A stretch of DNA of 35,162 bases. It comes from Pseudomonadota bacterium (lineage in GTDB: Bacteria > Bdellovibrionota > FAC87 > UBA2466). The stretch is from the NCBI GenBank assembly GCA_043767805.1, contig JAYUGC010000065.1, positions 1 to 35,162 on the forward strand, in the 5' to 3' direction. Position numbers and translations under genes: made by a program. The notes under the pieces are model-generated. The model had not been told where the DNA came from and ran no database searches. It saw only the letters and a program-made list of their open reading frames with translations. Positions within the stretch are counted from its first letter, which is position 1; each line of letters begins with the position of its first letter. Of the stretch, positions 14,686 through 35,162 are shown in pieces.

Positions 14686-14794
14686 GGGCGCTTGAATGCT
14701 GGACTTTTCGACCCTTCATCCGCTATGACTCACTCCAACCTTCACGTGCGGGAGCCCCCTTTTGGGCCCCGGCACTGAAGCGGAGGCCCAAACC

Positions 14795-18738: not shown

Positions 18739-18799
18739 GCATTTTTTACCGACTTGGGCGTTGAACCCGCCCCCTGGTTTGGGTATATGTGCCCTACTC

Positions 18800-20382: not shown

Positions 20383-20455
20383 AAAAGGTGTGTGGATACT
20401 TTTAGCCACGGCAAATCCCGTGCCGCCGCGAGCTAAAAGTATCCACACACCTTTT
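20383..20455. repeat. Perfect 24-bp inverted repeat (REPIN-like doublet or bidirectional terminator)
   Basis: AAAAGGTGTGTGGATACTTTTAGC (20383-20406) and its exact reverse complement (20432-20455) with a 25-nt spacer. It fills the gap between two convergent genes. Confidence 0.85.
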
Positions 20456-21434
20456 AGAGGTCTTTTTTGTAGAGGGCGTAGGTGTGTTGCCAGAGGGTAG
20501 CGGCTTTTTTGGCGTAGGACTCGCTTCGGTTGCCCGTGCGCACTAAGGCCGAGATGAAATTCTCGAGGCCGCCAGAGACGCCTTCGCGGGCCGCGAGGTA
20601 GGTCAACGCCGTCGACAGGCCCTGGCCGCGGCAGGCGTCCAGCACGGTCGCGCTTTTCAACACCAGGTACCCCGGCTCGGGGAAGGCGAAGAGAAAAGCT
20701 ACTTCCTTACCCTCGGGCGACAAGGCGAAGAACGCGCAGGTGAAATCCATCTTCTTCACGATGGGAACGTACAGTTCACGAAACTGCTGCACGGTAATCG
20801 GCTCGAAAAGAAAGTTATCACGAAAGCCCGCCATGCTGAGATCGAAGAGCGCGGGAATCTCATGGTCCAGAAAGTTGGGGCCGTCGAAGGGACGAAAGGT
20901 GAAGCCCGCCGCGATCGCCGCCTCGTAAGCCGGCTTGGTCTTATCCAAGTAAGCTTTGAGTCCCGCCGAGCCGAGCGTGTGGTAGTGCTCGCACACGGTG
21001 TAGCCATTCGCTTCGAAAAACCAGGGGTACTCCGGGGGATTATTGGGCTCCCACGCGAAGCTCGCCTCGTGAGTGTCCGTGCGAAAGCGATACGGAAACC
21101 AGGTATTGAGATTCATCGGACCGACGGCTAGCCGCGCGCCCTTTGCCTTGAGCCAAGCCTCGGCGGCATCAAGTAGCGTCTCGGCGACTTCTTTCTCAGC
21201 GTCTACGACTTCAAAGAACCCCACCGCTCCCGTTCCGGGGTGTGAAGGCATGAGGCTCGCGCCGATGCGACCGACCGGCGTTTCGCCGTCGAAAACCACC
21301 CAGAACTCCGCAAATTCCGCCGGCGCGAGATCGAGAAAGCGCGCCCAAACGGCCTTTAGCGGCGAGCCTTCCGGCAATGCGCTGAAAGCTTCTCTAAAGC
21401 GCGGGTGATTGTCGGAGCGCGAGACTAAGCGCAT
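20454..21434 (-). CDS. Tandem GNAT-fold N-acyltransferase-like protein
   Basis: ATG 21434 is 1 nt after the upstream stop. PVGRIGA, GAVGFFE, LLDAAEAWLKAKGA, GPMN, NPPEY, C-terminal acetyl-CoA-type motif CRGQGLS. 326 aa. Confidence 0.8.
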   Translation of the reverse strand: MRLVSRSDNHPRFREAFSALPEGSPLKAVWARFLDLAPAEFAEFWVVFDGETPVGRIGASLMPSHPGTGAVGFFEVVDAEKEVAETLLDAAEAWLKAKGARLAVGPMNLNTWFPYRFRTDTHEASFAWEPNNPPEYPWFFEANGYTVCEHYHTLGSAGLKAYLDKTKPAYEAAIAAGFTFRPFDGPNFLDHEIPALFDLSMAGFRDNFLFEPITVQQFRELYVPIVKKMDFTCAFFALSPEGKEVAFLFAFPEPGYLVLKSATVLDACRGQGLSTALTYLAAREGVSGGLENFISALVRTGNRSESYAKKAATLWQHTYALYKKDL

Positions 21435-21435
21435 A

Positions 21436-24159
21436 TCACTTCTCCAAAATACGGATTTCGCCTTTGCCCGCATCCACGCGAACGCGGTCGCCTGTTTTGA
21501 GACGAGTCATCAACCCGCCGGTGACACCGACGATGGTCGGAAGCCCGAGCTCTCTTGCCACCACCGCGGAATGAGACAAAAGACTTCCGCGCTCAATGAG
21601 AAGGCCAGAGCAAGACGGATAGAGCGGCACCCAACCTGGATCGGTACGGCCCGTAACTAAAATTTCCCCGTTCAAGCCTTCCGCGTCTTTCAGGTTCGAT
21701 ACCACGAGCACAACGCCTTCGACCACACCAGGACAGCAAGGCGTACCCGTGAGCACGTTGGGATCCGAGTTCACTTCGGTGGTTCGAAGCAAGTCGCCCT
21801 CGGCAAGTATCGCCGTGTAGCCCATGGAAGCGCCCGCGGCGCCAAAGGTGAGCAGCCGATCGGGAGGCGCCGGAGTGTCCTCGTAAATTAGATATTCCTT
21901 TTTGCGGATCCGTACGAGGCTCTTGATGTCGCCCGAGATACCACGGCCCTCGACGAAACCCACGATTTCTTCCACCGTGAGGAAGAAGATGTCGCGTTCG
22001 CCGTCCAGGAGATCCATGGCCGCGAGCTTCTTACCCATGGCGCGAAAGAGATGGCGGCACACGCCAAACACTTTCGTGCGGGCAAAGCGCAAGTTCTCGC
22101 GGTTCTTCACCGCGCGCCTAGCCTGAGTGAGGACCCAACTGTAAAGACTCCAGCGGAAGCCGGAAAGCTTCGCTCGCACTTTGGCCTCGGCGCCGCGGCG
22201 AATGCCCTGCTCCCGCTCTTCCATATTGCCGAACTCGTAGGAACCCGTACGCACGTAACTCGCGATGGAGTTGATGACGAACGTGGGATCGTCATGGAGA
22301 TCCGAAGCTTCCAGCTTCAACTCGTCCACGCAGCGGAATCCGTATTTGTCGAGGAACTCGAACAAGTCCTTCGTGAAAGCCGCGTCCTTCTTCGAGCCTT
22401 GGAGCTCTTTCCAAACCGCGTCGGAAGACATCGAGAGCATCCAGGACCGGAAACCAGGATCGCCCTTGTCCACGCGCGCTGCCATGCGCATCAAAAACTT
22501 CGTGGGCTCGGTGCTCTCCAGGCCTCCCTCACCGCATAGCAAATCGTTTTGCAGCGAATCGGCCGCCCCCTTACCTTCCACCCATTTCTCAGTGAGCTTC
22601 TTCAAAAGACCGAAGAAGAGCATGCAGAGGTAGTCGTTGATGATGGGCGCTTTCCACTGTTTCAAGAGCTGCTCGTCCAGATAGTGGTAATGATCGACGA
22701 GCCTCGGCAGTGACCAGGTGCTGTAATCGAGCTTGCGGGTCCCTTCGTAAACATCCACGAAGTGAGCATTGAACTCGCCGATGATCTTATCGATGTTTCT
22801 GAACCGATAAATCGTCTGGCTGAGGAGCCTTAAACGCGCCCGAAGGGAGTACTTCGGCGCTTCTTTCACGAAATCGAAGATGCCCGCCATTTCGGGCTTT
22901 ATCTGGGCTTTGACGCCCATCATGGTGTCCATGAAGCCTTTGTTGCTCGACGAGCCGGGAAGCATCAGCACCAGCTGGTACCAGTTCACGAGGTTGTAAT
23001 AGATGCGGCCGCGAATGAGCCCAAGCATGTTGCGAAACATTTTCGCGCGCGCGTCGACGAGTTCCTGAGGGACGCCCATCAGCTCGCAAAACTGCACGTA
23101 GACCTGATAATAGGCACGGCTCGCGAAGCTGAAGGTCAAAGGCGACGTCACGCCGCTGTAACTCTCGATGATGTTGGAATTGTCCCAAAGGGTGGGCGCG
23201 GTGCCGTTGATCGATTCCGAGTAAAAGCCCGAAGGCGGCAAGGACGTTACGGGACGGGTTTGAACCAAGTAGAGCTTTCCTGAGTCGAGTACCCATTCGG
23301 CGTCTTGGGGCGTGCCTAGCGACTCCTCGAGCTTTTCGCTCAGCTTCGCAATAGAGCTCACCTGTTCGTCGGAGAGGGAGCTTTGCAGCCCTTGCTCGAC
23401 GGTGAGAGCTTCCTTGACCACGCCACCTTCGCTCGCCTGGCGCATGGCGTGACTCTTCGTGACGACGCGTTTTTCGATTTTTCCCGTCCGACGGCTGATT
23501 TCGAAATCGTCGGACTCGAGCTCTCCGCTCACCAAACCTTCGCCGAGGCCCCACACGGAGCTGACCAGAACTTCATCGCGGTTCAAAACCTTGATGGGAT
23601 GACGAGAGAAGACCACGCCCGCAGCTTCCGCGTTGACCATTCTCTGGATGACCACGCCCACGCGAATGTCTTGCAAGCCGAGGCCGCGCTCCAGGCGATA
23701 GCTGAGCGCCCGCTCGGAAAAGCCGGAAGCCCAGCAACGTTTCAAAGATTCGGCGATTTGTTCCCACCCTTTTTGAAAGAGATAGGAGGAAAACTGTCCG
23801 GCGAAAGAGTTCTGCGCAGAATCCTCGTCGAGGCCGCTCGAGCGTACCGCCACGAAGGAATCTTCGAGACCGAGCGCTTTGAGCTTTCCAAAGATTTCCG
23901 CCTTCAACGAGTCCGAGATATTGCCTTTGAGGAACGCTGCTTCGACGCGGCGAGAAAGCTCGCCCAGATCCGCGGTGGGCTTCAAGACTTCCGCGAGATC
24001 GTTTTCCTGAACGAAGGCTTGCAACGCCTCGGAGGTCACCGCGAACCATTCCGGTACGGTAAAGCCCTTCTGAGAGAGGCGGCCAAGATTGGTGGCCTTA
24101 CCTCCGGCGAGAACCGACAGTTCCGTGATGGCCGAGCTTGATTCAAGAGTCCACTTCAT
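21436..24159 (-). CDS. PEP synthase / rifampicin phosphotransferase-architecture dikinase
   Basis: 907 aa. ATP-grasp domain (GGKA, AVRSSGLDEDSAQNSFAGQF, VQTRPVT), central substrate domain (WDNSNIIESYSGVTSPLT), C-terminal swivel phospho-His domain (TDPGW, GSLLSHSAVVARELGLP). Confidence 0.9.
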   Translation of the reverse strand: MKWTLESSSAITELSVLAGGKATNLGRLSQKGFTVPEWFAVTSEALQAFVQENDLAEVLKPTADLGELSRRVEAAFLKGNISDSLKAEIFGKLKALGLEDSFVAVRSSGLDEDSAQNSFAGQFSSYLFQKGWEQIAESLKRCWASGFSERALSYRLERGLGLQDIRVGVVIQRMVNAEAAGVVFSRHPIKVLNRDEVLVSSVWGLGEGLVSGELESDDFEISRRTGKIEKRVVTKSHAMRQASEGGVVKEALTVEQGLQSSLSDEQVSSIAKLSEKLEESLGTPQDAEWVLDSGKLYLVQTRPVTSLPPSGFYSESINGTAPTLWDNSNIIESYSGVTSPLTFSFASRAYYQVYVQFCELMGVPQELVDARAKMFRNMLGLIRGRIYYNLVNWYQLVLMLPGSSSNKGFMDTMMGVKAQIKPEMAGIFDFVKEAPKYSLRARLRLLSQTIYRFRNIDKIIGEFNAHFVDVYEGTRKLDYSTWSLPRLVDHYHYLDEQLLKQWKAPIINDYLCMLFFGLLKKLTEKWVEGKGAADSLQNDLLCGEGGLESTEPTKFLMRMAARVDKGDPGFRSWMLSMSSDAVWKELQGSKKDAAFTKDLFEFLDKYGFRCVDELKLEASDLHDDPTFVINSIASYVRTGSYEFGNMEEREQGIRRGAEAKVRAKLSGFRWSLYSWVLTQARRAVKNRENLRFARTKVFGVCRHLFRAMGKKLAAMDLLDGERDIFFLTVEEIVGFVEGRGISGDIKSLVRIRKKEYLIYEDTPAPPDRLLTFGAAGASMGYTAILAEGDLLRTTEVNSDPNVLTGTPCCPGVVEGVVLVVSNLKDAEGLNGEILVTGRTDPGWVPLYPSCSGLLIERGSLLSHSAVVARELGLPTIVGVTGGLMTRLKTGDRVRVDAGKGEIRILEK

Positions 24160-24986
24160 AACAACCCCACGAGGATGACGGACCAGATATGCACCAGGAG
24201 CGAGAGCGAAGCGACGCCCTCCACCGCCTTGTGCTTATCGACGAGCAGGAAAAGGAAAGAGAGAATCAAAAGCGCCGAGCAAGGCATCGTTAGAACGACC
24301 ACCCCTAAGAAGGCGGCGGCCCAAACGGAAATCACCGAGCAGATGCCGACGATCGCAAGGCATCCCGTGGAGCCATAGAGCGTCCGATAGTACCCAAGAA
24401 TCGGATTCGCCTTGGCGTCTAACTTACGGCAAACCTCATAGCTAAAGAAAGCGCCCAGCACGAGAAGCCCATAGAGAAAGCCGCGTCCCACGACATCTCC
24501 GCCACTCGCCGCCACGGGCAAGGCGCAAAGGGGAAGCAAAATAATTTGATGAGTGACGGCGTAAAGCAGCGGACGGTTTCCCAGCCAGCTGCCCACATAA
24601 AACTCTTTGAACATGAGCCAGAGATAACCCGTGATGAGAAGGTAGAGACCGGAGGCGGCCGGAGACAGCGGCGATAACAAAAGCCCGAAGGCCACCATGA
24701 AGAGTACCGAGCCGTTGATGACTCGGCCGACCGTATCCTTCTGCAAGAGCCCGCGAGGCAGCGGTCTTTCGGGATGCGCGACCAAATCCTTTTCGTAGTC
24801 TTTGTACTCGTCCATGAGACGAAGGACCGCGAAAAAGAGCATGAGTCCGAGGAAAGAAGCCCAGAACGGCAAACCAATGACTGGGACCCCCGCGAGACGC
24901 GTGCCCGAAGCGGCCATTCCCCCGACGAGAAGGACGTAAACCAAGATCGGAAATCGCTCTTTAAAGTAGGTTAGCCACGCGCCCAT
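24156..24986 (-). CDS. UbiA-superfamily membrane prenyltransferase-like protein
   Basis: 276 aa, about 8 TM helices. First acidic motif RLMDEYKDYEKD...HPERPLPRG; the second motif has diverged to YEVCRKLD. Confidence 0.85.
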   Translation of the reverse strand: MGAWLTYFKERFPILVYVLLVGGMAASGTRLAGVPVIGLPFWASFLGLMLFFAVLRLMDEYKDYEKDLVAHPERPLPRGLLQKDTVGRVINGSVLFMVAFGLLLSPLSPAASGLYLLITGYLWLMFKEFYVGSWLGNRPLLYAVTHQIILLPLCALPVAASGGDVVGRGFLYGLLVLGAFFSYEVCRKLDAKANPILGYYRTLYGSTGCLAIVGICSVISVWAAAFLGVVVLTMPCSALLILSFLFLLVDKHKAVEGVASLSLLVHIWSVILVGLL

Positions 24987-26377
24987 AAGGACCTCCTCGC
25001 GCTCTTTACCCGATCGATGCGCGCCCGGTGGCGGGGATCGCGGCGGATGACGACGTTAAGGACTTCGGAAACTCCCGGGATGCCTTCTCGAATGGCGGCC
25101 TCGCGTGCTTTCGCCTTTTGCACGAAAACGCGGATGCCCCGCTCGTCGCGCTCGATGAAGCCGGCGCTCGTTTTCAAGAGCGAATAGAGTTTCTGCTCAG
25201 TCAAAAAATCCGCGGTCGGCAGCTTTTCGCGGCCGGAGTACCACCAGCCGCCGTCCTTCTGCGTGATGCGGTCTCCCATGCGGTGCCAGATGGCGCCCGT
25301 GCTGTCTTGTCGTTTGTACTTCGCATTTTCCTCGTCGTTGCCGAGGTAGCGAGGACAAACATGGGGGCCGGAAACCCAGACCGTGTCGGGGGTGAGCTCG
25401 GAACGAATGGCGTCGATAGGCTTACCTAAGAACAAAGTTTGGAAAAATCCCGCCTCACGGCTCTTGGCTACCGCGACTCTCGCGTCGACCACGGCGACAG
25501 GCTCCACTTCGGTACTTCCATAAACGTGCTTCCAGCCCGCTTCGGGCCATTTCGCAAAGCCGCGCTCGAAAATCGCACAATCGGTCAGAGCGCCGCCCAC
25601 GTGAATGGAACGAAGGCTCGCCACCTTCGCGTGATCCATGAGCTTCATGAGAAAGGCGGGCCCACAGGTCATCGAGCGAGGCGTGAGCTCGCCACTCAGA
25701 CTATCCAGCGCCGCGAGATGCTCCGATTTCCATTTGGAAGGAAGGATTAGGCTCGGATTACCCGCCGCGAGATTGCTCAAAGCGAAATTGGCGAAGATGC
25801 AAACGTCGGCGCCGGGCTCGTGGGCTCCATGCAACACCGACTGCAAAATCGAGTGTTGATCGGAGAGATATTGATGAGTGCGGACCATTCCCTTGGGGCT
25901 ACCCGTCGTCCCAGAGGTAAAAGTGATAATCGCTGGGGCATCTCCGTCGACAGAGGTGATCTGCCAGCCGCCCGGCTCCGCCTTCAGAGAAGACGTCGAC
26001 ACCCAATGCGGAATGGCGCGAATGGAGGCGACTCGGGCGCCCCAAAGCCGGCCGATGCCACTCGTCAAAAATACTTTGGGCTTCACGAAGGGAAGGACGT
26101 GATTGATTTTTGCGACCGGCATCCAGGGCTCGACCAAAGCGGTGGCCGCTCCCAAGGACGCGATGGCGAGAATCGCGCCGTACATCCGGGGTCCCAGCGC
26201 ATCAAACATTAAGACGGTATCACCAGGGCCAACCCCAAGCCGCTCCATGTGCGCTCGCACGCCAGTCGCCATCCGGCCCATCTCACCAAAGGTGGTAACG
26301 CCACCGTCGGGTAGCCAGAGGGCGGCCGCCTTCGGCTTCTCCTCCGTTTGACGGACTATGAGCTCGGCCGCGTTCAT
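24971..26377 (-). CDS. AMP-binding (ANL superfamily) enzyme, OleC-like
   Basis: TFTSGTTGSPKG, VGGA, YGSTEVEP, WHRMGD, YSGR, C-terminal DPRHRARIDR. 468 aa. Confidence 0.85.
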   Translation of the reverse strand: MNAAELIVRQTEEKPKAAALWLPDGGVTTFGEMGRMATGVRAHMERLGVGPGDTVLMFDALGPRMYGAILAIASLGAATALVEPWMPVAKINHVLPFVKPKVFLTSGIGRLWGARVASIRAIPHWVSTSSLKAEPGGWQITSVDGDAPAIITFTSGTTGSPKGMVRTHQYLSDQHSILQSVLHGAHEPGADVCIFANFALSNLAAGNPSLILPSKWKSEHLAALDSLSGELTPRSMTCGPAFLMKLMDHAKVASLRSIHVGGALTDCAIFERGFAKWPEAGWKHVYGSTEVEPVAVVDARVAVAKSREAGFFQTLFLGKPIDAIRSELTPDTVWVSGPHVCPRYLGNDEENAKYKRQDSTGAIWHRMGDRITQKDGGWWYSGREKLPTADFLTEQKLYSLLKTSAGFIERDERGIRVFVQKAKAREAAIREGIPGVSEVLNVVIRRDPRHRARIDRVKSARRSLWARG

Positions 26378-27483
26378 CCCTGATACTCGTAAATGAAGGT
26401 ATAATAGATCTGAGTTTTTTCGGCGGACACCAACTCGGCGTACTTGGCCGTAACGTCTTTGTAGCCCGTCGAATCGGTGTTCTCCGGCACCCGGAGGTAG
26501 CAGCGCACCACCACCAGAGCCCCCGGGTTCAGCCCTTTGCCGAGCCGCTGTAAATAGACGCGGTCCTGGTGGATGGAGAAATAGGACGGCACGTCACTCA
26601 AAGAGACGAAATCGAATTTCTCCTTCGTTTCCTCAGCGACGCTCAGTAAATCCGCGTTGACCAGAGAGACGGGTATGCGGGCGAGGCAATCCTTCATCTC
26701 CTTATAGACCTCGGGCCGGGCTTCGTAAGTGTTAGCCTCGGGGTACCGGATCTTTCCGAGAAAAGAGAGCTGAAGAAAGAAGTTTTCCCGGCAGAGTCCT
26801 TGGTAAAAAAGGCGCCGATAAGCCTGGCGGTAATAATCAAAGTGCGTTTCGGGAACATTCTTCTTCGCCATATGACCTTTGTAGAGAAAGGCATTGAAGA
26901 AGGCAGCATTGCCGAACGCGCGAAGAACCAAGCGAGGAAGCAGTAACCAGCGAGCGCTATGAAGCTTCTCGTCGAAATACTCCTTTTGCGCCTTCATGTC
27001 GGTGAAATCGAAAATCTCGTCGTACCTGTCGCCGATGAGCCGGCGGAGGAGCTTCGGCACGCCCGTAAAGGTCTTTTCCCATTTCCCTTCGTACAAGATG
27101 CCGTGCCAGTTCAGCGAATCGTATAGGACCTCGAAATATTCGCGGGTCGCGCCATCCAGCTTGAACTTCGCGAAAGTCTCTTTGCGCCATTCGGCGTTCT
27201 CTTCCGTCTTGAAAGGCGGAAAGCCCCAGTACATGAGGTACTCTTCGTGGCTCAAAGCCTCGATGGCCGCCCGTTTGTGGCTCGTCAAAAGCAGTTGCTG
27301 TCCGGAGAGGTCCGCGCACACCAGCTCCTCCAGGGTTCCCCCCAGCAGCGGGAGACTGCGGCCGCCGCTGCCGCAAACGGCGAGGACTCGCTTCGGAAGC
27401 CTCTCTTTTACGAGAGTGTACTCCAAGGCCGTATCTTCGTTCGCCAGCGTGTAATTGAGCTTTGAGAAATATTGCTTAGACAT
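26374..27483 (-). CDS. DUF3419/BtaA-family SAM-dependent (aminocarboxypropyl) transferase
   Basis: LNYTLANED, VLAVCGSGG, ADLSGQQL, YEGKWEK, ENFF, FDFVSLSDVPSY, LNPGALVVVR. 369 aa. Confidence 0.8.
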   Translation of the reverse strand: MSKQYFSKLNYTLANEDTALEYTLVKERLPKRVLAVCGSGGRSLPLLGGTLEELVCADLSGQQLLLTSHKRAAIEALSHEEYLMYWGFPPFKTEENAEWRKETFAKFKLDGATREYFEVLYDSLNWHGILYEGKWEKTFTGVPKLLRRLIGDRYDEIFDFTDMKAQKEYFDEKLHSARWLLLPRLVLRAFGNAAFFNAFLYKGHMAKKNVPETHFDYYRQAYRRLFYQGLCRENFFLQLSFLGKIRYPEANTYEARPEVYKEMKDCLARIPVSLVNADLLSVAEETKEKFDFVSLSDVPSYFSIHQDRVYLQRLGKGLNPGALVVVRCYLRVPENTDSTGYKDVTAKYAELVSAEKTQIYYTFIYEYQG

Positions 27484-29563
27484 TTTCTCTCCCTGAGCCC
27501 GAAGGCTTCCAGCTTTTTAACGCTTCCAAGGCATGTTCCCGGCAGAGCGCGATCTCCTGATCGGTGATGATGCCGGCGGGGCCGCGAATGGCCGCCAGCT
27601 CGGCTCCGTGCCGCTTGGCGATATCGTAAATCTCTCGCACGCGCTCGAAGCTGATGTTGCGAGACAGGGTGAATGATTCGTAGCGGCCTTCCAGGGCGAG
27701 AAGCGCCGTCTCGGCGAGACAGGCGTAAACCACGGATTCCTCGAGCCCGATGTCGCAATTCATCTCGACCGTGCCCGGAAGCATCACTTCGCCGCTCTCG
27801 ATGACGAGCACGTCGGGACGCTCGGCCACCTGAGCCGCAGAATAAGTCAGCGGCCGGGAAACGTCGGAAATCACGCAACCCGGCTTCACGGATTTCAGAT
27901 CCATGACTTTTCCATCGAGAGAGCTCGTCGACAAAATAATGAGATCGCACTCTCCGGCGTATCTATCGGGGTTCGTCCCAATTTCAATTCGGCAGTGAGG
28001 ATTTAGCCTTTGAAACTCTTCGCGAAGGTCCATGAGCTTGCTGCTCGTCAGGGAAACCAGAATGAGTCGCTTCACCACCGCGGTCAAAAGCTTCGCGGAT
28101 ACCTTACCTATGCTGCCCGTCGCGCCAACCACCATCGCCGTGCCCTCTAAACGGGGCGTTTGAAAGCTATAGGGAGCGATGAAGCCGAGCTTCTCCACCG
28201 CGACTCGGGCGGCCCAGAGCGCGGCGGAAGCCGAAAGGGAGTTTCCCGTCGTTACCGGAATGGGGCTTAGCGAAGCCACCGTCACTCCGGCATCTCCGAC
28301 CACTTTAGTAAAGGCGCCGAGCCCGATGATGTCGGCGCCATCTCTCGCGGCCTGCTCGGCGACTTTCACGAGTTTGTCGTAAACGACTTGGGGCTTGGCC
28401 CGCAGCATCTCTCTCGGCGTGTCGAAAAGCGTATAGATAAGTCCTTCCACGCGAGTGCCATCGTGCCGGCTCGTGATGCCGCGGATGGTGCCGTACCGCA
28501 TGCCCGGGAGATGAGATAGGCCACGCTCCAGAGGCCTCTCGAATAACTTAGCCACCCCTTGCAGAGGACGAAGGGCCGGGTGACGAAATAAATCACGGAC
28601 GCTCAAAGGATGAATGATGAAAGCGAACTTCCTCACCGCCCGGTACTCGCCTTGGGAGACGTTTCTGAGCTCGGCCTTGAGTCCCTTTTCATTGATGAAA
28701 GAGAGTACGTCGTCCTCGTCGAGAGGAAGGCTGCGGTTCTGGGTCACCTGAATGAGAGCTTCGAGCACGCCGTAACGAAGGCCGCTCGTCACATTCACGC
28801 CCGGAATGCGAGGCACGATCTGAATGATGTCTTTCACCTTGGCGCTTCTAAGCTGCGTTTCCAAAGCATGGGAGAGCGAATCGACAATGACGGTGCGGCC
28901 TTTAAAGACCCGGCTATCGACTCGTTCCAATACCGTCGATGAGCCGACGATGAAATCGCTGCGGCTCGCTTCTTTCGCTCTACGAGAAAACGGAAGCAGG
29001 CGGAAATCAATGCTCGTCGGCAAAGAGCTGAGCGGCACGCGCTTTAAGAACGGCAGTAACCGCTTCGTATAAGCATTCAGCTCATCCATACCCTTCAAAA
29101 TGATGGGAAGATGCAGATGATAAAAGGCGTCGGCGAAGTAAAGCCTGTCCGTGTACTGGGCGATGACGTTGACCAGCTCCTGATCGACCAAGCCCGAGGC
29201 AAACGCGACCTTTCGCCCCTCGAAGTTGATGCGCTTTTCCTTCACCTGATTCTGGATGGCCCAGGGGATGAAGACTTTGCGAAGCAAGAACCCGGAAGTG
29301 ACCGGCGTGTGCTGAGGGATCTGAAGATAGCGCTGGGAGTCGGGATGATAGTGGAGCTTTCGGCCCACCCGCACGGGAAGCTGCAAGCCGCCGACCGAAA
29401 TGACGTCGCATTTGCCGTCGTGCTGCTTCAAAAGCGCTTCCATCGTCTCGGCATCGAAATCGGCGCCGAACTGAGAGATGCGAACCTTTTCCCCGAAAAA
29501 ATCGACCACCGTGTCGTAATTGTTCCGGGACGAGGTAAAAAGAAGGCTGACGATATGTTTCAC
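27476..29563 (-). CDS. Acyl-ACP/CoA reductase-like (aldehyde-forming, AAR-like) protein with a large N-terminal extension
   Basis: GTG 29563 overlaps the upstream TGA; 695 aa. The C-terminal half has FAFIIHP, GLGAFTKVVG, TTGNSL, Rossmann VVGATGSIG, DVSRP and YACLAETALLALEGRYESFTLSR. Confidence 0.75.
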   Translation of the reverse strand: MKHIVSLLFTSSRNNYDTVVDFFGEKVRISQFGADFDAETMEALLKQHDGKCDVISVGGLQLPVRVGRKLHYHPDSQRYLQIPQHTPVTSGFLLRKVFIPWAIQNQVKEKRINFEGRKVAFASGLVDQELVNVIAQYTDRLYFADAFYHLHLPIILKGMDELNAYTKRLLPFLKRVPLSSLPTSIDFRLLPFSRRAKEASRSDFIVGSSTVLERVDSRVFKGRTVIVDSLSHALETQLRSAKVKDIIQIVPRIPGVNVTSGLRYGVLEALIQVTQNRSLPLDEDDVLSFINEKGLKAELRNVSQGEYRAVRKFAFIIHPLSVRDLFRHPALRPLQGVAKLFERPLERGLSHLPGMRYGTIRGITSRHDGTRVEGLIYTLFDTPREMLRAKPQVVYDKLVKVAEQAARDGADIIGLGAFTKVVGDAGVTVASLSPIPVTTGNSLSASAALWAARVAVEKLGFIAPYSFQTPRLEGTAMVVGATGSIGKVSAKLLTAVVKRLILVSLTSSKLMDLREEFQRLNPHCRIEIGTNPDRYAGECDLIILSTSSLDGKVMDLKSVKPGCVISDVSRPLTYSAAQVAERPDVLVIESGEVMLPGTVEMNCDIGLEESVVYACLAETALLALEGRYESFTLSRNISFERVREIYDIAKRHGAELAAIRGPAGIITDQEIALCREHALEALKSWKPSGSGRENV

Positions 29564-30609
29564 TTCGAGCCCCCCTTCATGAGATTTTCCAAGGCGTAGG
29601 CCATCAAACGGGGCGCATAGCTTTCGAAGTACGGCATTACAAACTTGGGTAAACGATGGGCGAAACGCTGGTTGTCGTACCGAACGCCGCAGTTCATGTA
29701 GAAAAGCGTTTGAGCGGGAATATCCAAACGGCCGGCAATCTTCTCGATCCACCGGTTGGAAGGAACGCTAAATAGCCGCACTTGATACCCGCAGGCTTCC
29801 AGCATCTCGCGAAGCACCGTCCGAATCGGGGCTCCGTGAGGATCGCCGGTCAGGTGAAACGTATGAAGGCCGGCATCATGAGGCCCCCCCATGAGCTCCG
29901 TCATCGCGCGCGCGGTGACATCGACCGGAACCATGTACAGCCGGGTGTGCTCGTTAAAGGGGAGGGTCAGCATCCGAGTCGCATTTACCCAACCGCGCGC
30001 GAAAGCCATCCGACTGAGAAGCCGAAGCAGATAGTAAGGCCCATCAATCTTCGGGATTATGCCCGTTTCACTATGGCCCACCAAAACGCCCAGCCGGTGC
30101 ACGACACGGGGAACACACGACTGCCAATCCCGGACGGAGCTTTCCGCGGCGAATTTCGTGGAGGCGTAAGCGTCGGGAAAGGTTTGCCCGACGTCGAACA
30201 TCTCTTCACCCAGGAGCCCGGAGTAATTGCCGGCCACGGCTATGGTGCTCGTGTAATGAAAAGCCTTCAGGCCGGGCATGAGCTCCGCGAAATGCAAAAC
30301 GTGATTCGTGCCAACGACATTACAAAGGTAGAGATCCTTGCGGCTCGCCTGCAGATCGTAGAGAGCGGCGGCGTGGACCACGCCCGTGGTCTCATAAAGG
30401 ACGCGCTGGCGAACCGAAGGATCTTCGATGACGTCGGGATTCAAGATGTCTCCGCCGACCCACTCCACGCCCGCGAGACCGAGAGCCCGCATCTTTTCGA
30501 GATTCTTGGGGCGGGCCAAGGCAAACACTTTTTCACCGCGAACGGACAACTGCCGGAGCAGCTCGGCTCCCAAAAAACCCGTACCTCCGGTGACGAACCA
30601 GCCGTTCAT
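29560..30609 (-). CDS. Extended SDR oxidoreductase (NAD_binding_4 / fatty acyl reductase N-domain-like)
   Basis: ATG 30609 (ATGA overlap). FVTGGTGFLG, HAAALYD, NVVGT, TSTIAVAG, YASTK, VGHSETG...KIDGPYY. 349 aa. Confidence 0.87.
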   Translation of the reverse strand: MNGWFVTGGTGFLGAELLRQLSVRGEKVFALARPKNLEKMRALGLAGVEWVGGDILNPDVIEDPSVRQRVLYETTGVVHAAALYDLQASRKDLYLCNVVGTNHVLHFAELMPGLKAFHYTSTIAVAGNYSGLLGEEMFDVGQTFPDAYASTKFAAESSVRDWQSCVPRVVHRLGVLVGHSETGIIPKIDGPYYLLRLLSRMAFARGWVNATRMLTLPFNEHTRLYMVPVDVTARAMTELMGGPHDAGLHTFHLTGDPHGAPIRTVLREMLEACGYQVRLFSVPSNRWIEKIAGRLDIPAQTLFYMNCGVRYDNQRFAHRLPKFVMPYFESYAPRLMAYALENLMKGGSK

Positions 30610-31568
30610 TCGGGCACCGCCACGAACTCTTCCGGACGCTGAAAGCTCGGCAAGGAGAGGCGGAAGACTTTGAGCGCCCGGGGCAGAACGCGCACTTCGA
30701 GCTTTCGCCCTTGAGCGAGCAGCTCTCCGTCGCCGAAAAAGGTGAAATCCGGTCCGTCGACGAGCTCGATGTCGACCTGATCGGTCTCGAACGAGATGAC
30801 GCAAGGATCATGGTCCACCGGAAGGCCGCGCTTAACTCTCAGCACCGTGCCAATGAAGGACGTCCAATCGGAATGGGCGAAAATGGTGACGTTGAACTTA
30901 CCGTCGGAGTTGGAAGTCTCGGGCGCCACGGGAAAATCGCCGGCGATATAGGGCTGATTGTTGATGAGAAGAAGCGGAGTTACGACTTCGCCCTCGTACT
31001 GAGCCGAGCGGACTCTCACCCGATAGTGCCGATACTTGCGGGAGATGAGATGGGCGACGAGAGCGATGGTGTAAACGCGGTGATGCAAGGACTTCATGAG
31101 GGAACGAAAGCCGGGAATCTTTCCGCGCAAACTATTCACACTGAGAGCGACGTCACTAACCACTCCGATGCCGCCGTTGGTCGCCATATAGCGCCCGTTC
31201 ACGGAAATAAGATCGATACGATGCACCTCGTCCCGCCGCACGCATTCGAGAGCTTTCTTTAGCTTGGGAGTGATACCGAGCTCACGCGCGAGATCGTTTG
31301 CCGTGCCCGCGGGGACGACCAAAAAAGAGGTCTCGCTCTCCGCAAGGCTCTGGATCAAAGTATTGAAAGTCCCGTCGCCCCCGACGGAAATGATGACGTC
31401 GATCTTTTCGCGCGAGGCGCGCCGCAGCTCTTCCTTCATCAATTCGGGCGTCCCTGGGCTTACGAAGTCCACGTGACTGCGAAAAAGAAATTCGTGAATT
31501 TTCCCTTTCCAGTCATAAGCGCCGCTGGAAGAAGCGGCTCCATTTAAAAATACGCGAACCCTGTGCAT
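30606..31568 (-). CDS. Diacylglycerol/sphingosine kinase family lipid kinase
   Basis: FLNGAAS, VGGDGT, PAGTANDLAR, IDLISVNG, SDGKFNV, GDGE. 320 aa. Confidence 0.9.
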   Translation of the reverse strand: MHRVRVFLNGAASSSGAYDWKGKIHEFLFRSHVDFVSPGTPELMKEELRRASREKIDVIISVGGDGTFNTLIQSLAESETSFLVVPAGTANDLARELGITPKLKKALECVRRDEVHRIDLISVNGRYMATNGGIGVVSDVALSVNSLRGKIPGFRSLMKSLHHRVYTIALVAHLISRKYRHYRVRVRSAQYEGEVVTPLLLINNQPYIAGDFPVAPETSNSDGKFNVTIFAHSDWTSFIGTVLRVKRGLPVDHDPCVISFETDQVDIELVDGPDFTFFGDGELLAQGRKLEVRVLPRALKVFRLSLPSFQRPEEFVAVPE

Positions 31569-31574
31569 ATATCC

Positions 31575-32738
31575 TCAAAAAGAGAAGCTCACCTGCGAGG
31601 TGATTCGGCTCGTGTAGCCGAGAAGGGTCGTGGGAGAGCTTGGATCGTCGCCTAGCCACTCCCCGCCTGTTTTAACTTCCCAAGCCTCGCCGAGCTTCAA
31701 ACGCCCGGAGAGCTGAAACCAGTAGTCTCCCGACTTAAACCGGGACGAAGCTTTCCCTTCGATTTCAAACTTGTTGTTGAACAAGCCCTTGCGCGCCATG
31801 AGCGCCGCGCCTACCCGCGCGTCGCTTCCCAAAACGGCGAAGCGATCGAGAGAGACCTGAACGCCGAAAGTCAGATTCTCGAGGGACGCCGGCGTCCAAT
31901 CGAAACCGGCGTTCGCGGAGTAGGTCGTTTGGGTTGGGGTCGTCGTAAACGTCGCGTCCGAGACCGGATGGTCCTGAGTCAGAATGCCGTCCGCTCTCAG
32001 CACGATTTCCGAAAAGCCTCTGGAAAACGTGGCGCCATAGGAAAGCACGGGCCGGTAAACGGCGCTCAATGTGCCCGGAGCCCGCATTACGAAGGCGGGA
32101 AGCCGGTTCAAGTGCCGATAAGCAAACACGCTCGCGTTCGAATCGGCGAGAGTCTTGCTGACCCGAACCCCACCCTCGGGATAAGTGAAGAAATCGCCCG
32201 CGCTTAGATCATTTTGAATCGCAAGGCCCTTAATCGCCGCGGGAAGCCGCGGAATCTGGCCCTGGGGGCTAAGATAGGGGCTGACCTTGAAACTTCCCAC
32301 GGTGAAGAACCCGTTTAAGTTCCAAGCCGGCAAACGGTTCCTGCCGTGATCCAGGGCGCCGTAATCACGGAAATCGCGGGCGTTCAAGATATCGACCGCC
32401 TGATAACCGAACGTCTCGCTCCAGGTGATTTGCTGAGCGCCGGCCGAGATGCCCCACCGATCGCCCCAGTAGGAGGCGCGCAGAGTCTGCAACGTGACGC
32501 TCGTCTCAGTCATTTTGGCTTCCGCATGGCTCCCGTTGGAGAACGCCCTAACCAAGGATTGAAACTCGATCGGTGTCTTTTCCGCGGTTTGCTTGACCGA
32601 AAGCTCGTAGGCGATGCGATTCGTATCGAAGCGTCCCGTGTTTCGCACGCCGCTCTCATAAGAGATTTCGCTGCGCACCTCGGGTTCCGCTTGAGCCAGG
32701 CCGGCCCACAGGGCCGCTATGCAGAAAAACACCTTCAT
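31575..32738 (-). CDS. Outer-membrane beta-barrel protein
   Basis: Signal peptide MKVFFCIAALWAGLAQA, GAQQITW motif, alternating amphipathic strands, C-terminal VSFSF (BAM signal). 387 aa. Confidence 0.75.
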   Translation of the reverse strand: MKVFFCIAALWAGLAQAEPEVRSEISYESGVRNTGRFDTNRIAYELSVKQTAEKTPIEFQSLVRAFSNGSHAEAKMTETSVTLQTLRASYWGDRWGISAGAQQITWSETFGYQAVDILNARDFRDYGALDHGRNRLPAWNLNGFFTVGSFKVSPYLSPQGQIPRLPAAIKGLAIQNDLSAGDFFTYPEGGVRVSKTLADSNASVFAYRHLNRLPAFVMRAPGTLSAVYRPVLSYGATFSRGFSEIVLRADGILTQDHPVSDATFTTTPTQTTYSANAGFDWTPASLENLTFGVQVSLDRFAVLGSDARVGAALMARKGLFNNKFEIEGKASSRFKSGDYWFQLSGRLKLGEAWEVKTGGEWLGDDPSSPTTLLGYTSRITSQVSFSF

Positions 32739-33442
32739 TTGGACTGAAACCTCTCTAAGCTGAAGAGCGTGTCGGGGAAGGTCTTGATCTTCATGTCGGA
32801 GATGCGAATCTCGGATTTCTGATCGGCGCGCACCGCATCCGCGATGAGCAGAAGCGTGGGCCTGGATTTTCCCGCCATGGACATATAGTCCTTGAACTCA
32901 CCGCGCTTGAGCACTTTGCCGTCGACCGTTAGATACTCGGCGGTCAGCGGCTTGAAAGTCTTTTTCTCAACGACGGCCCGTATCTTTTCGTACGTGAGCC
33001 CTTTCTTTTTTGCCGTGAGAAGCAGCGTCCAGCTGGCCGCTTCGTCTTTCTCGATGACGCCGATGTAGTCTTCCGCCCAGCGCATGCGGCTGATATCGCC
33101 GTTCGCCGCTTCACCGGTGAGCTTTTGACTGAGCCCGACTCGCACCGCCCGTTTCAGGTTCGGCACGTAAGCCCACATATTCTCGTCGATCATCAGAAGA
33201 TCGCGCCCGACATCGCGCTTCGGAGCCATGGTCCGGATCAACGTCTTGTCGTTGCCCTTCAAGGAAACTTCAAAAACGTGGGTCTCGGTATCGCCAGAGT
33301 GGGTGGACTTCACCTCCACCGTCATCATGAAGGACTTGTCTGGGTTTCGGATGTCGTCCGCGTTTTTTAAAATAGTTTCAGGGGATGTCGTCGCGAAAGC
33401 GGACGCCACCCACAAAAGAAGTACAGGCCAAATTTTCGACAT
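32735..33442 (-). CDS. Outer membrane lipoprotein-sorting (LolA-like) periplasmic protein
   Basis: ATG 33442 after a purine-rich RBS, signal peptide, DENMWAYVPNLKRAVRV, QKLTGEAANGDI, YEKI, FPDTLF. 235 aa. Confidence 0.82.
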   Translation of the reverse strand: MSKIWPVLLLWVASAFATTSPETILKNADDIRNPDKSFMMTVEVKSTHSGDTETHVFEVSLKGNDKTLIRTMAPKRDVGRDLLMIDENMWAYVPNLKRAVRVGLSQKLTGEAANGDISRMRWAEDYIGVIEKDEAASWTLLLTAKKKGLTYEKIRAVVEKKTFKPLTAEYLTVDGKVLKRGEFKDYMSMAGKSRPTLLLIADAVRADQKSEIRISDMKIKTFPDTLFSLERFQSK

Positions 33443-33456
33443 TCCTATCCCTTTCC

Positions 33457-34677
33457 TCAAGTTGAGCGCAGCGCTTCTCCGATAGGCATCCGCGTGACTT
33501 TGTAAGCCGCGAGGAACGTACCGATGAGCGCGCACATGGATCCCAGCAAAAACGTTTCGAGGCCATTGAAGGCCTGGAGCTCGACGAGCACGTGATATTG
33601 ACGAGTCAGCCCCGGGCTCGGCGGCATTAATATCCCATTCGCCATCAGGGTGGCGTTGGCGAGGTAAGCGACCGCGAGGCCGAAGAGGGCGCCCCCCATG
33701 CCGAGCAAAGCGCCTTCCGTGAGAAAGAGCGCCATGACGTCACGCGCGGACTCTCCATTGGCTCTCAAGTTACCGACTTCCTGCTTGCGCTCGAGAATGC
33801 CGGTAGAGACCGTATTGAAGATGCCGAGAATGACGATGAAAAGAATGACGAGACGAATGACCCGAAACTGCGAGCCAAGCCAGTCCACCGCGTTCTGGTA
33901 GTACACCTTGTCCAGCACCGCGAAGGCGACCGCTTCGAGTCCCGAGCCCTGAGGCGCAAGCGTCGAAGCGACCCGTTCCCAGTCTTTCAAATCTTTGAGG
34001 CCGACGGCGATACTCTCGACCTTCGCGGTATCGAGAAGCTTTTGAGCGACAGTCAGAGGCAAACGGAAGACGCGATCGTCGAACTCCTTCGCGCCGGTGT
34101 GAAAAATGCCGACGACCGTGAGATCGGCGCCGTTGATGCTGCCGTAGATGGTGTTCGCGAGCACCGTGACCCGGTCTCCGACTTTAAGGCGTAACGAGCG
34201 CGCGAGGCCCTGGCCCATCAAAATGCCTTCCGGCTGATCGGTCAGAGGCTTTCCCTCCTCGATATTCAAAGCCGTAAAGAAATCCGCTTCCGCCGTGCCG
34301 TCGATGCCCTGCCCGCGGCCGCTCAGAGTGATGGAGCCATTCGTAAGGAGCGAATAGAACTCGAGCCGGGGAAAAACGTGAGTCACCCCTTCGGTCGCCC
34401 GGATCTTCGCCATCAAGGGCTCGGGGTTTTCTATCCAATGTTCCCAGGGCTTTTCGAAAACCTGGCCGCGATAACCTTCGGTATTGATCTGCCCGTGGCC
34501 AAAACGAGAACGAATGGTGTTTTCGCGGTACTGGTTCATGATGCCGGTGTTAAAACCATTAAAGGTGAAGAGCGCACCCGTTCCCACGGCCACCGTCAGC
34601 GCGACGGCCATCGTACGGCGATAATTGCGGAAGCAATTTCTAAGGGCGAGAGAAAGCAGCAAGCGGAAGTTACTCAT
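33457..34677 (-). CDS. ABC transporter permease, FtsX/MacB/LolE family
   Basis: LALRNCFRNYRRT, TM1, large periplasmic domain (LARSLRLKVGDRV), ERKQEVGNLRANG, 3 C-terminal TM helices. 406 aa. Confidence 0.9.
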   Translation of the reverse strand: MSNFRLLLSLALRNCFRNYRRTMAVALTVAVGTGALFTFNGFNTGIMNQYRENTIRSRFGHGQINTEGYRGQVFEKPWEHWIENPEPLMAKIRATEGVTHVFPRLEFYSLLTNGSITLSGRGQGIDGTAEADFFTALNIEEGKPLTDQPEGILMGQGLARSLRLKVGDRVTVLANTIYGSINGADLTVVGIFHTGAKEFDDRVFRLPLTVAQKLLDTAKVESIAVGLKDLKDWERVASTLAPQGSGLEAVAFAVLDKVYYQNAVDWLGSQFRVIRLVILFIVILGIFNTVSTGILERKQEVGNLRANGESARDVMALFLTEGALLGMGGALFGLAVAYLANATLMANGILMPPSPGLTRQYHVLVELQAFNGLETFLLGSMCALIGTFLAAYKVTRMPIGEALRST

Positions 34678-35162
34678 CGCGCTTCCTCCTTTTCGATAAT
34701 GCCATCTTTCATGCGCACGATACGAGAGGCATATCCAAGCGCCATGGGATCGTGGCTAGCGAGGAGGACCGTGCCTCCTGCCGTGACGAGACGCGAGAAA
34801 ATTTCCATAATTTCTTTGCCGGTCTTTTGATCGAGACTCGCCGTGGGCTCGTCCGCGAGGATGACCCGCGGGGATTTTGCCAAGGCGCGCGCGACGGCGA
34901 CTCGTTGGCGCTGGCCGCCGCTCATCTCGAGGGGCCGCTTCTCCGCGTGGGATTTTAGGCCCACGCTGTCGAGCGCCGAGTGCACGCGCGACTCACGCTC
35001 CTCCGCCGTGAGGAATTGATGCTTCAAAAAGTATTCGACGTTCTCATATGCGGTCATCGTCTCGAAGAGATGAAAATGCTGGAAGACGAAACCTAAATCG
35101 AAGCGGCGCAGCTTATTCTTTTCGCCCTCATTGAGCCCTTTGAGTGAGCGCCCCTGATAGAG
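34674..35162 (-). CDS. ABC transporter ATP-binding protein, LolD/MacB-like (5' end outside the window)
   Basis: The frame is open from the window edge: LYQGRSL...GFVFQHFHLFETMTAYENV, MSGGQRQRVAVARAL, ILADEPTASLD, SHD. Confidence 0.92.
   Translation of the reverse strand, partial: LYQGRSLKGLNEGEKNKLRRFDLGFVFQHFHLFETMTAYENVEYFLKHQFLTAEERESRVHSALDSVGLKSHAEKRPLEMSGGQRQRVAVARALAKSPRVILADEPTASLDQKTGKEIMEIFSRLVTAGGTVLLASHDPMALGYASRIVRMKDGIIEKEEAR

Follow-up and report, generated by a model that had tools for sequence, protein, structure and literature searches.

The window analysed here is the whole of contig C65 (JAYUGC010000065.1; 35,162 bases), which belongs to a 204-contig, 4.5-Mb assembly of a bacterium of the phylum Bdellovibrionota. 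On its minus strand, twelve open reading frames (ORFs) follow each other head to tail from position 35162 down to 20454, and together they probably build and export a non-canonical envelope lipid. With the listed start codons, the eleven junctions between the genes measure -4, +14, -4, +6, -4, -4, -8, -4, -16, -4 and +1 nucleotides (nt), i.e., neighbouring genes overlap at 8 of 11 junctions. These values and the shared orientation had been given in an initial annotation of the stretch and are reproduced exactly from the ORF list. The operon is thus genuine and its genes, at least 12 in number, are tightly coupled; the twelve in the window encode, in order (lengths in amino acids, aa; scores are Pfam matches):

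34674..35162, minus strand: ABC transporter ATPase, truncated at its 5' end, 162 aa seen; PF00005, 69 bits
33457..34677, minus strand: MacB/LolCE-type permease, 406 aa; PF12704 (MacB_PCD, periplasmic), 63 bits, and PF02687 (FtsX), 59 bits
32735..33442, minus strand: LolA-like periplasmic carrier, 235 aa; PF17131 (LolA_like), 119.5 bits against a cut-off of 30
31575..32738, minus strand: probable outer-membrane beta-barrel, DUF1302-like, 387 aa; signal peptide, C-terminal ...SFSF
30606..31568, minus strand: DAGK/YegS-family lipid kinase, 320 aa; PF00781 (DAGK_cat), 77.5 bits, and PF19279 (YegS_C), 47.1 bits
29560..30609, minus strand: extended short-chain dehydrogenase/reductase (SDR) of the fatty-acyl/thioester-reductase type (NAD_binding_4), 349 aa; PF07993, 117 bits
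27476..29563, minus strand: two-module reductase, 695 aa; N-terminal domain of ~310 aa and C-terminal AAR/PigE-N-type acyl-thioester reductase
26374..27483, minus strand: DUF3419 (BtaA-family) transferase of the S-adenosylmethionine (SAM) type, 369 aa; PF11899, 96.2 bits against a cut-off of 28.2
24971..26377, minus strand: ANL-superfamily adenylating enzyme with a short C-terminal part, 468 aa; PF00501, 100.7 bits
24156..24986, minus strand: UbiA-fold intramembrane transferase, 276 aa; PF01040, 32.4 bits, under the gathering cut-off of 34.2
21436..24159, minus strand: dikinase of Rph/PigC architecture, 907 aa; PF01326, 257 bits (residues 17-307), and PF00391, 69 bits (830-900)
20454..21434, minus strand: tandem GNAT N-acyltransferase, 326 aa; PF00583, 36 bits (37-118), and a weak second GNAT domain (248-293)

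Pfam and NCBIfam searches reproduced all family labels that had been assigned before, with the reservations that the barrel has no Pfam model, the UbiA match is sub-threshold and the label "OleC-like" for the adenylating enzyme is weak. By inspection of the sequences, the expected catalytic motifs are intact in the kinase (GGDGT at 63-67), the SDR (GGTGFLG at 8-14, YASTK at 148-152), the reductase, the adenylase (TSGTTGSPKG at 154-163) and the dikinase. The kinase scores 107.8 bits with TIGR00147, slightly under the cut-off of 118.65. The claim that the operon has no polyketide synthase (PKS) or nonribosomal peptide synthetase (NRPS) core also stands: Pfam and NCBIfam detect no PKS, NRPS carrier protein, condensation domain or pyrrole genes among the operon proteins.

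The operon ends at 20454, since the ABC-F type ATPase gene downstream of the GNAT stop codon (18761-20380, plus strand) is convergent. At the other end, the first gene is truncated by the contig end, and its missing 5' part has neither an overlapping contig end nor a tblastn match elsewhere in the assembly. The ABC ATPase is complete in a genome of the same genus (G001; labelled "uncultured Pseudobdellovibrionaceae"), in which all twelve genes recur in unchanged order, with 63-85% identity at the amino-acid level. Hence, the arrangement is not due to chance. Retrieval of upstream sequence had been suggested as a source of further operon genes. Upstream of the ABC gene, G001 has a 235-aa signal-peptide ORF without a family match, chromate-transporter genes and a divergent isonitrile-type cluster. 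The 235-aa ORF is the only possible extra gene. In Bdellovibrio-type loci, two small ORFs stand ahead of the ABC gene, but the 235-aa ORF shares no homology with them, and thus conserved extra operon genes are not evidenced. A consensus scan of the stretch gave 1 promoter-like and 14 terminator-like sites, fewer than in shuffled sequence, and is uninformative. The stretch was found only in sediment-metagenome DNA runs of a single study, with no RNA run listed.

The gene set extends far beyond this genus. The reductase is found in 6 of 41 close relatives. Its family is present in 107 of 401 evenly drawn Bdellovibrionota genomes, mostly in families f10 (51/100 genomes), f8 (24/53), f14 (19/58) and f4 (5/20), with 4/33 in the window's own family. 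DUF3419 occurs in 141 and the UbiA-like protein in 139 of the 401 genomes. Among the 107 reductase-positive genomes, 105 also encode DUF3419 and 104 the UbiA-like protein; the compared genomes are related and not independent, and these counts describe co-inheritance and are no statistical test. The co-occurrence holds for unlinked genes as well, which lie far apart in G036 and on another contig in G020. Together with the synteny in G001, these figures bear out the co-conservation that the initial annotation had presupposed.

A set of 27 loci (the window and 26 others) shows how the genes are distributed. Kinase and reductase are present in 27/27 loci, the SDR in 25/27 by ORF clustering, where the two misses (the window and L016) are ORF-calling artefacts recovered by Pfam or tblastn, and DUF3419 in 24-25 of 27. 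The adenylase follows with 19/27, the dikinase with 17/27, the UbiA-like protein with 15-17 of 27, the GNAT protein with 11/27 and a formyltransferase-like protein with 9/27. The LolA-like protein is found in 8/27 loci, ABC ATPase and permease in 7/27 each and the barrel in 5-6 of 27. About 25 loci share the order kinase, SDR, reductase, DUF3419, and these genes are a fixed four-gene core. The twelve genes of the window are one version of a gene set inherited together across Bdellovibrionota. A rearranged copy of the cluster in G003 carries a 691-aa flavoprotein of the Old-Yellow-Enzyme/2,4-dienoyl-CoA-reductase type between adenylase and reductase (L012 9941-12016).

These data also bear on the idea that two or more unrelated pathways lie side by side, namely a fatty-alcohol/wax pathway, a BtaA-type lipid pathway and a dikinase/UbiA/adenylase module. 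The reductase family does work in other contexts in other phyla, and the adenylase/UbiA/dikinase block is often found on the opposite strand or on another contig. We nevertheless regard such a chance neighbourhood as very improbable: the co-inheritance of 105/107 and 104/107 includes unlinked genes, all twelve window genes are coupled, 8/11 junctions by overlap, and the block lies within 10 kb of the core in 17/27 loci.

Turning to the enzymes of the core, the 695-aa reductase matches the PigE model NF053554 (model positions 1-357; E 2.6e-48) and TIGR04058 (E 6e-13), in both cases under the equivalog cut-offs, as well as the PDB sequences 4ppm (E 3.3e-38) and 6jzq (E 1.2e-16). Cys615 is invariant in 6/6 sequences and aligns with Cys294 of 6jzq_A and the corresponding Cys of PigE. 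The motif GATGSIG at 480-486 is conserved, with G480, A481, G483, I485 and G486 invariant. A preprint on the carmabin TAD domain describes an invariant cysteine beside the nicotinamide in an AAR-like fold (bioRxiv 10.1101/2024.10.28.620694). The AAR-type C-terminal module of the reductase would, by homology, load a fatty acyl thioester on Cys615 and reduce it to the fatty aldehyde, the fatty nature of the substrate being presumed.

The N-terminal 315 residues of the reductase give a confident model with a predicted local distance difference test score (pLDDT) of 90.6. Its best structural matches are TAD (9e4s) and AAR (6jzq), at template modeling (TM) scores of only 0.45-0.54, and an alignment of 54 homologues has one invariant Gly, no conserved Cys and no glycine-rich motif. 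The most fitting interpretation of the domain is a second copy of the AAR-like fold that has been stripped of its catalytic features. In some Bdellovibrionota, stand-alone genes for ~326-aa homologues of the stripped domain occur besides the fused form (G086:C5:220886-221824, G145:C1:1757013-1757951 and G332:C49:25591-26493). By language-model features, the domain lies near clusters auto-named 'quinate 5-dehydrogenase' (0.91-0.92).

The SDR aligns with the N-terminal half of the FAR-type model NF005539 (202 bits) and with TIGR01746 (85 bits), and would convert the fatty aldehyde to a fatty alcohol. No member of the aldehyde-deformylating oxygenase family, the partner of AAR in the cyanobacterial alkane pathway, is encoded among the operon proteins.

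Neighbourhoods outside the phylum are informative about the product of the reductase. A scan of genome contigs gave no fewer than 600 stretches with a match; a relative is encoded in 582 of them, and the neighbourhoods were taken from the best 80. These include Marinobacter, Vreelandella, Rubrivivax, Nocardioides and other actinomycetes, Burkholderiales and Desulfobacterales. Among the best 80 loci, a kinase lies nearby in 23 and DUF3419 in 23, and these loci carry Bdellovibrionota-type or unresolved 'proteobacterium'-type labels, with one exception labelled Sulfitobacter sp. MAG. The exception (L017) is a 2-Mb contig with a full Bdellovibrionota-type cluster at 35-43% identity, which reflects either a wrong taxonomic label or a transferred gene set. 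The remaining 56 loci have different neighbours, with the WS/DGAT family in five and the iron-dependent alcohol dehydrogenase (Fe-ADH) family in five. In Rubrivivax, the reductase adjoins an Fe-ADH. In Nocardioides sediminis (L048 6922-13404), it is fused to a WS/DGAT wax-ester synthase in a protein of 1124 aa, which is preceded by a 1009-aa protein that ends in NAD_binding_4 and has no Pfam family in its first ~650 residues. This arrangement may represent an undescribed actinomycete wax-ester route. Given the WS/DGAT and alcohol-dehydrogenase contexts elsewhere, the reductase probably yields a fatty aldehyde or alcohol.

The DUF3419 gene of the core is present in a single copy in the genome (whole-genome search, 95.7 bits), and orthologues occur in Halobacteriovorax, Oligoflexus and Bacteriovoracaceae. 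Close homologues are named 'S-adenosylmethionine-diacylglycerol 3-amino-3-carboxypropyl transferase' by JGI. The glycine-rich ...VLAVCGSGG... at 33-41 and the acidic residue in ...VCAD at 55-58 agree with the SAM-binding motif of the class I fold. As a BtaA-family enzyme, it would use SAM to move a 3-amino-3-carboxypropyl (homoserine-type) group onto a lipid hydroxyl, giving an ether-linked amino-acid head. Cluster-type DUF3419 copies score about 90-225 bits as compared to the 374-402 bits of other copies in the phylum, and the cluster DUF3419 is therefore a distinct, more distant subfamily.

BtaA and BtaB make the betaine lipid DGTS in Rhodobacter sphaeroides and rhizobia, and BTA1 does so in algae. 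That the operon DUF3419 serves ordinary DGTS synthesis, with unrelated neighbours, is hardly credible, even though the protein scores over the Pfam cut-off and its close homologues bear BtaA-type names at JGI. The gene for the methyltransferase BtaB is absent from the operon (no methyltransferase family is found among the 12 operon proteins; the rest of the genome was not searched for BtaB), the protein reaches 96 bits in comparison to 374-402 bits for canonical-looking copies of the same phylum, which occur in genomes without the reductase, and the gene is fixed beside the reductases and the kinase.

The last gene of the operon bears on the amine of the putative head group. GNAT is found in 11/27 loci (10 by ORF clustering and L014 by tblastn) and the formyltransferase-like protein, a Formyl_trans_N protein of about 250 aa, in 9/27, while both together occur in 0/27. 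GNAT accompanies a short adenylase (468-528 aa) or a fusion of adenylase and UbiA-like protein (L026, 828 aa; L032, 760 aa). The formyltransferase-like protein accompanies an adenylase with an N-terminal alpha/beta-hydrolase (about 800 aa), or a separate hydrolase in L017. Both versions are found among genomes labelled Bacteriovoracaceae or Bacteriovorax and thus the split is not one deep divide. The formyltransferase-like version is laid out within about 26 kb in the complete genome G147 (genus g65): one strand carries a long-chain acyl-CoA-ligase-like gene followed by the formyltransferase-like, hydrolase-adenylase, UbiA-like and dikinase genes, and the other strand carries DUF3419, reductase, kinase, permease and ATPase.

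The strict alternation of GNAT and formyltransferase-like proteins is the strongest indirect hint at a free amine in the intermediate. A profile of 10 GNAT orthologues is nearest to phosphinothricin N-acetyltransferase (2jlm), with a weak E of 6.7e-4. Since that enzyme acts on a 2-amino-4-substituted butanoate, the likeness, weak as it is, also points to a free amine. The pattern points to a capped amine, in line with a BtaA-type aminocarboxypropyl transfer. The new alpha-amine would be capped by the tandem GNAT protein (acyl or acetyl) in the window and by the formyltransferase-like protein in the alternative version, as their mutual exclusion suggests. PDB sequence searches with single UbiA-like, DUF3419 and GNAT proteins gave nothing usable, and RecA matches of GNAT were spurious.

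The adenylase matches NF006754 (E 1.2e-39) and TIGR01733 (E 1.1e-24), and its nearest PDB sequences are NRPS A domains (about 1e-11). With the OleC models, it reaches only 58 and 49 bits (cut-off 900). Thus, the term "OleC-like" is too specific and a generic ANL adenylating enzyme is the better description. The 276-aa membrane protein encoded next to it has the all-helical UbiA fold according to a model with a pLDDT of 88.6. The best Foldseek matches of this model are the DGGGP synthase (DGGGPS) structures 7bpu and 6m31 and ApUbiA (4od4), at TM scores of 0.64-0.67, followed by UbiA homologues, a membrane phosphoribosyltransferase and UBIAD1. In L026 and L032, adenylase and UbiA-like protein are fused (32.5 and 30.9 bits with PF01040, respectively), and hence these two proteins act together at the membrane. 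UbiA enzymes bind Mg-diphosphate with two Asp-rich motifs. In 17 homologues of the operon protein, D59-E60-x-x-D63-x-x-x-D67, R74 and R78 are invariant, a first Asp-rich motif and two Arg of the kind that bind Mg-diphosphate in the UbiA family.

The dikinase consists of a PPDK_N ATP-grasp domain, a central domain and a mobile phospho-His domain, and no PEP/pyruvate barrel is matched. The His motif ...LLSHSAVVAREL... at 870-881 of the mobile domain includes SHS. The protein stays under each cut-off, with 872.4 bits for NF004881 (cut-off 883), 355 for PigC (1300), 347 for Rph (999) and 344 for RedH (1350), and its best PDB match is 5fbs/5hv1 (867-883-aa entries; E 1.8e-76). Kinase, adenylase, UbiA-fold transferase and dikinase would add ATP-dependent activation and membrane-embedded transfer, e.g., a phosphorylation or a second hydrophobic or polar group.

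A more specific route through these enzymes builds on the initial annotation, in which the alcohol is phosphorylated and then transferred by the UbiA-like enzyme to a head group. The DAGK-like kinase would phosphorylate the fatty alcohol, possibly followed by the dikinase to give the diphosphate, and the UbiA-fold enzyme would move the alkyl group to a head built by DUF3419, adenylase and GNAT, yielding an alkyl ether. In agreement with this, kinase, dikinase and UbiA-fold transferase co-occur with the fatty-alcohol-forming pair, the structures nearest to the UbiA-like model are those of the ether-lipid synthase DGGGPS, and the first Asp-rich motif with its two presumed diphosphate-binding Arg is invariant. 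However, known UbiA enzymes, to our knowledge, ionise allylic or ribosyl diphosphates, so that a saturated primary alkyl diphosphate would be a poor substrate ill-suited to the UbiA mechanism. Moreover, the gene fused to the UbiA-like gene is the adenylase and not the kinase, family f15 has kinase, dikinase and UbiA-like genes without the reductases, and the order of steps is read from gene content. We consider this route improbable. A saturated chain joined non-isoprenoidally, as the step from alkyl phosphate or diphosphate to the UbiA-like enzyme implies, is possible and would be chemically unprecedented.

The first genes of the operon encode a Lol-like export set. The best NCBIfam matches of the ABC ATPase are DevA, LolD and MacB types, all far under the cut-offs (129 bits with the LolD model as compared to a cut-off of 308). 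The permease, whose start overlaps the ATPase stop by 4 nt, reaches 90 bits with TIGR02212 (lolCE; cut-off 362). The LolA-like protein matches the general LolA_like model PF17131 only; it carries a signal peptide and lacks a lipobox cysteine. None of the operon proteins is LolB-like. The 387-aa barrel candidate is matched by neither Pfam nor NCBIfam, and language-model features place it with DUF1302 barrels (score 0.98; 18/30 matches in DUF1302 clusters). In Bdellovibrio sp. HCB-162, a LolA-like gene and a 354-aa gene without a family are placed between reductase and DUF3419. Going by the families, the MacB/LolCDE-like ABC transporter would extract the product from the inner membrane, the LolA-like protein would ferry it through the periplasm and the DUF1302-like barrel would receive it at the outer membrane.

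The same enzymes might instead produce a secondary metabolite that is diffusible or surface-active, for example a lipoamino-acid surfactant, a signal or a predation factor, and that the ABC/LolA/barrel set secretes. The patchy distribution of the gene set (107/401 in the phylum sample, 4/33 in the window's own family) and the variable tailoring (GNAT or formyltransferase-like protein; P450 and metallo-beta-lactamase-fold protein in L032) would suit such a compound. The adenylase is nearest to NRPS A domains, the dikinase scores PigC and RedH about as well as Rph, and the AAR-like fold occurs in the natural-product enzymes PigE and carmabin TAD. On the other hand, the operon lacks PKS, NRPS carrier protein, condensation domain and pyrrole genes, and sets of LolA-like and DUF1302-like proteins point to a hydrophobic cargo that would stay in the envelope. 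The presence in about half of the sampled genomes of the large families f10 (51/100) and f8 (24/53) suits a physiological trait better than a strain-specific metabolite. We therefore rate a secreted metabolite as unlikely, albeit worth keeping in mind.

The product we favour, with moderate confidence, is a fatty-alcohol-derived, homoserine-headed, N-capped lipid that is exported by the Lol-like ABC transporter, the LolA-like carrier and the DUF1302-like barrel. Several observations weigh against it. The scheme gives the kinase no substrate, it does not account for the adenylase, the UbiA-like protein and the dikinase, and the operon lacks a carrier-protein gene. The operon DUF3419 is distant (96 bits) from the copies of nine same-phylum genomes, all without the reductase (374-402 bits), and due to this distant membership a different acceptor or even a different chemistry is possible. 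A second Asp-rich motif is not evident in the 17 UbiA-like homologues, where E184, R187 and K188 are invariant instead. Only 5-8 of 27 loci have the export genes within 10 kb of the core. In family f15 (G071, L097), kinase, double FtsX permease, DUF3419, P450, adenylase, UbiA-like protein, dikinase and GNAT are present while reductase and SDR are not nearby, and thus the reductive route is not universal. Finally, the compared genomes are kin, so that the counts overstate independent support.

Cytochrome P450 genes are found at two of the loci: between DUF3419 and adenylase in G071 (L097 8814-17216) and, together with a gene for a metallo-beta-lactamase-fold protein, in addition to the reductases in L032 (12095-14292). 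The acceptor hydroxyl may alternatively stem from hydroxylation by a P450.

A bolder version of the favoured lipid combines it with the kinase, dikinase and UbiA-fold enzyme into a new class of envelope lipid in predatory Bdellovibrionota. A fatty alcohol formed by the AAR-type reductase and the FAR-type SDR would be ether-linked to a homoserine-type head by the BtaA-like enzyme and N-acetylated or N-formylated, kinase and Rph-type dikinase would make the alkyl diphosphate of a second fatty alcohol, and the UbiA-fold enzyme would attach this non-isoprenoid chain as the first alkyl transferase of the UbiA family, followed by a private Lol-like route to the outer membrane. We regard this full scheme as a long shot.

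If the favoured lipid is real, about a quarter of the sampled Bdellovibrionota species make an undescribed envelope lipid. The BtaA family would be put to a new use, on a fatty-alcohol-type acceptor in place of diacylglycerol, and a first function would be found for the widespread two-module acyl reductase (at least 582 stretches; Marinobacter, actinomycetes, Burkholderiales, Desulfobacterales). Likewise, an adenylase-fused UbiA-fold enzyme and, within lipid metabolism, an Rph/PigC-type dikinase would gain first functions. It is with their outer membrane that these predators meet and enter the prey, and hence a lineage-specific outer-membrane lipid bears on predation. Carriers of the gene set include complete genomes of the Bdellovibrio genus-level group and named, cultivable strains of Bdellovibrio and Halobacteriovorax, which makes the lipid claim directly testable. 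Examples are Bdellovibrio sp. HCB-162 and Halobacteriovorax sp. JY17 and GB3.

Other loci of the window and its relatives are noted for completeness. At 9540-12061 (minus strand), a gene for a family-21 glycosyltransferase (PF13506, ceramide-glucosyltransferase/HpnI-type) overlaps a GH1 beta-glucosidase gene by 4 nt; this pair, 8 kb from the operon, is possibly glycolipid-related. Positions 12125-17235 encode a PAS/GAF histidine kinase, two single-domain response regulators and a 688-aa protein of the PF10136 'site-specific recombinase' family (622 bits). The isonitrile-type cluster of G001 (L007 1664-7733) encodes a PvcA/DIT1-like protein, a TauD-family dioxygenase and a P450 together with an LPG_synthase_C-domain protein and a 377-aa ORF without a family. 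It lies ~2 kb upstream of the operon, with the chromate-transporter genes and the 235-aa ORF in between, whereas in the window genome an isonitrile-type cluster is located on a separate contig (C81 552-6327).

Lastly, we compare the operon with known systems. The statement that no characterised pathway has this combination of genes agrees with our literature search: no matching pathway was found in the open-access literature and preprints covered, although a paper in a subscription journal could have been missed. In this literature, no paper that pairs Bdellovibrio with a betaine lipid was found, and none of the papers found on DUF3419 concerns such a system. The operon is real and conserved and probably encodes a lipid pathway, apparently undescribed, made of known enzyme families.

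As in the BtaA/BtaB system, a DUF3419/PF11899 enzyme would move the aminocarboxypropyl group of SAM to a lipid hydroxyl and create a phosphorus-free amino-acid head. In contrast to that system, the operon has no BtaB, its enzyme belongs to a distant subfamily and has acyl reductases and a lipid kinase as fixed neighbours instead of serving bulk diacylglycerol, and N-capping enzymes and a dedicated exporter are added. Canonical DGTS synthesis was rejected for the lack of BtaB in the operon and the distant DUF3419 subfamily. With AAR (6jzq), the N-terminal domain of PigE (4ppm) and carmabin TAD (9e4s), the C-terminal module of the reductase shares the fold family, the Rossmann motif and the aligned catalytic Cys. 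It differs by the extra ~310-aa N-terminal domain of related fold without conserved Cys or glycine motif, and the operon has no aldehyde-deformylating oxygenase, aminotransferase or NRPS partner. Like the FAR and WS/DGAT systems of Marinobacter and actinomycetes, a thioester reductase and an NAD_binding_4 SDR would yield a fatty alcohol, and homologues of the 695-aa protein are fused to or lie beside WS/DGAT and Fe-ADH. However, the operon has no WS/DGAT, and the alcohol would gain a head group and be exported instead of being esterified to wax.

The export genes resemble LolCDE-LolA-LolB in that a MacB-type ABC transporter, a soluble LolA-like carrier and an outer-membrane barrel are encoded with lipid enzymes. 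Their scores are far under the Lol equivalog cut-offs, only one permease gene is present and LolB is missing, and what they transport is presumably a lipid and not a lipoprotein. Lipid-export sets with LolA-like and DUF1302 proteins occur, e.g., in aryl-polyene clusters. The dikinase has the three-part architecture and the catalytic His motif in the mobile domain of Rph and PigC/RedH/TamQ, but is under every equivalog cut-off and is encoded in a lipid operon beside a UbiA-fold protein. The latter shares the predicted fold and the first Asp-rich motif with archaeal DGGGP synthase (7bpu, 6m31) and departs from it and from UbiA by its sub-threshold sequence, a second Asp-rich motif that is not evident and the adenylase fusion in some genomes.

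OleBC fusions join an alpha/beta-hydrolase to an adenylase, and the alternative version of the gene set resembles OleBCD by its alpha/beta-hydrolase-adenylase fusion and the SDR. The OleA thiolase is missing, and the OleC and OleD models reach 58-60 bits with cut-offs of 580-900. The Ole pathway was rejected on these grounds (no OleA; OleC 58 bits vs. 900, OleD 60 vs. 580). The menaquinone enzymes MenE/MenA were rejected as well, as there is only a weak MenE match and no match to a MenA model. Bacterial sphingolipid synthesis has kinase, SDR, GNAT and adenylase in common with the operon, but was rejected since no aminotransferase of the serine-palmitoyltransferase type is encoded in it. A prodiginine/tambjamine pathway was rejected because PigE-N-like and PigC-like parts are present but no pyrrole, PKS or aminotransferase genes. 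While it has the defining set of none of these characterised systems, the gene set shares parts with several of them.

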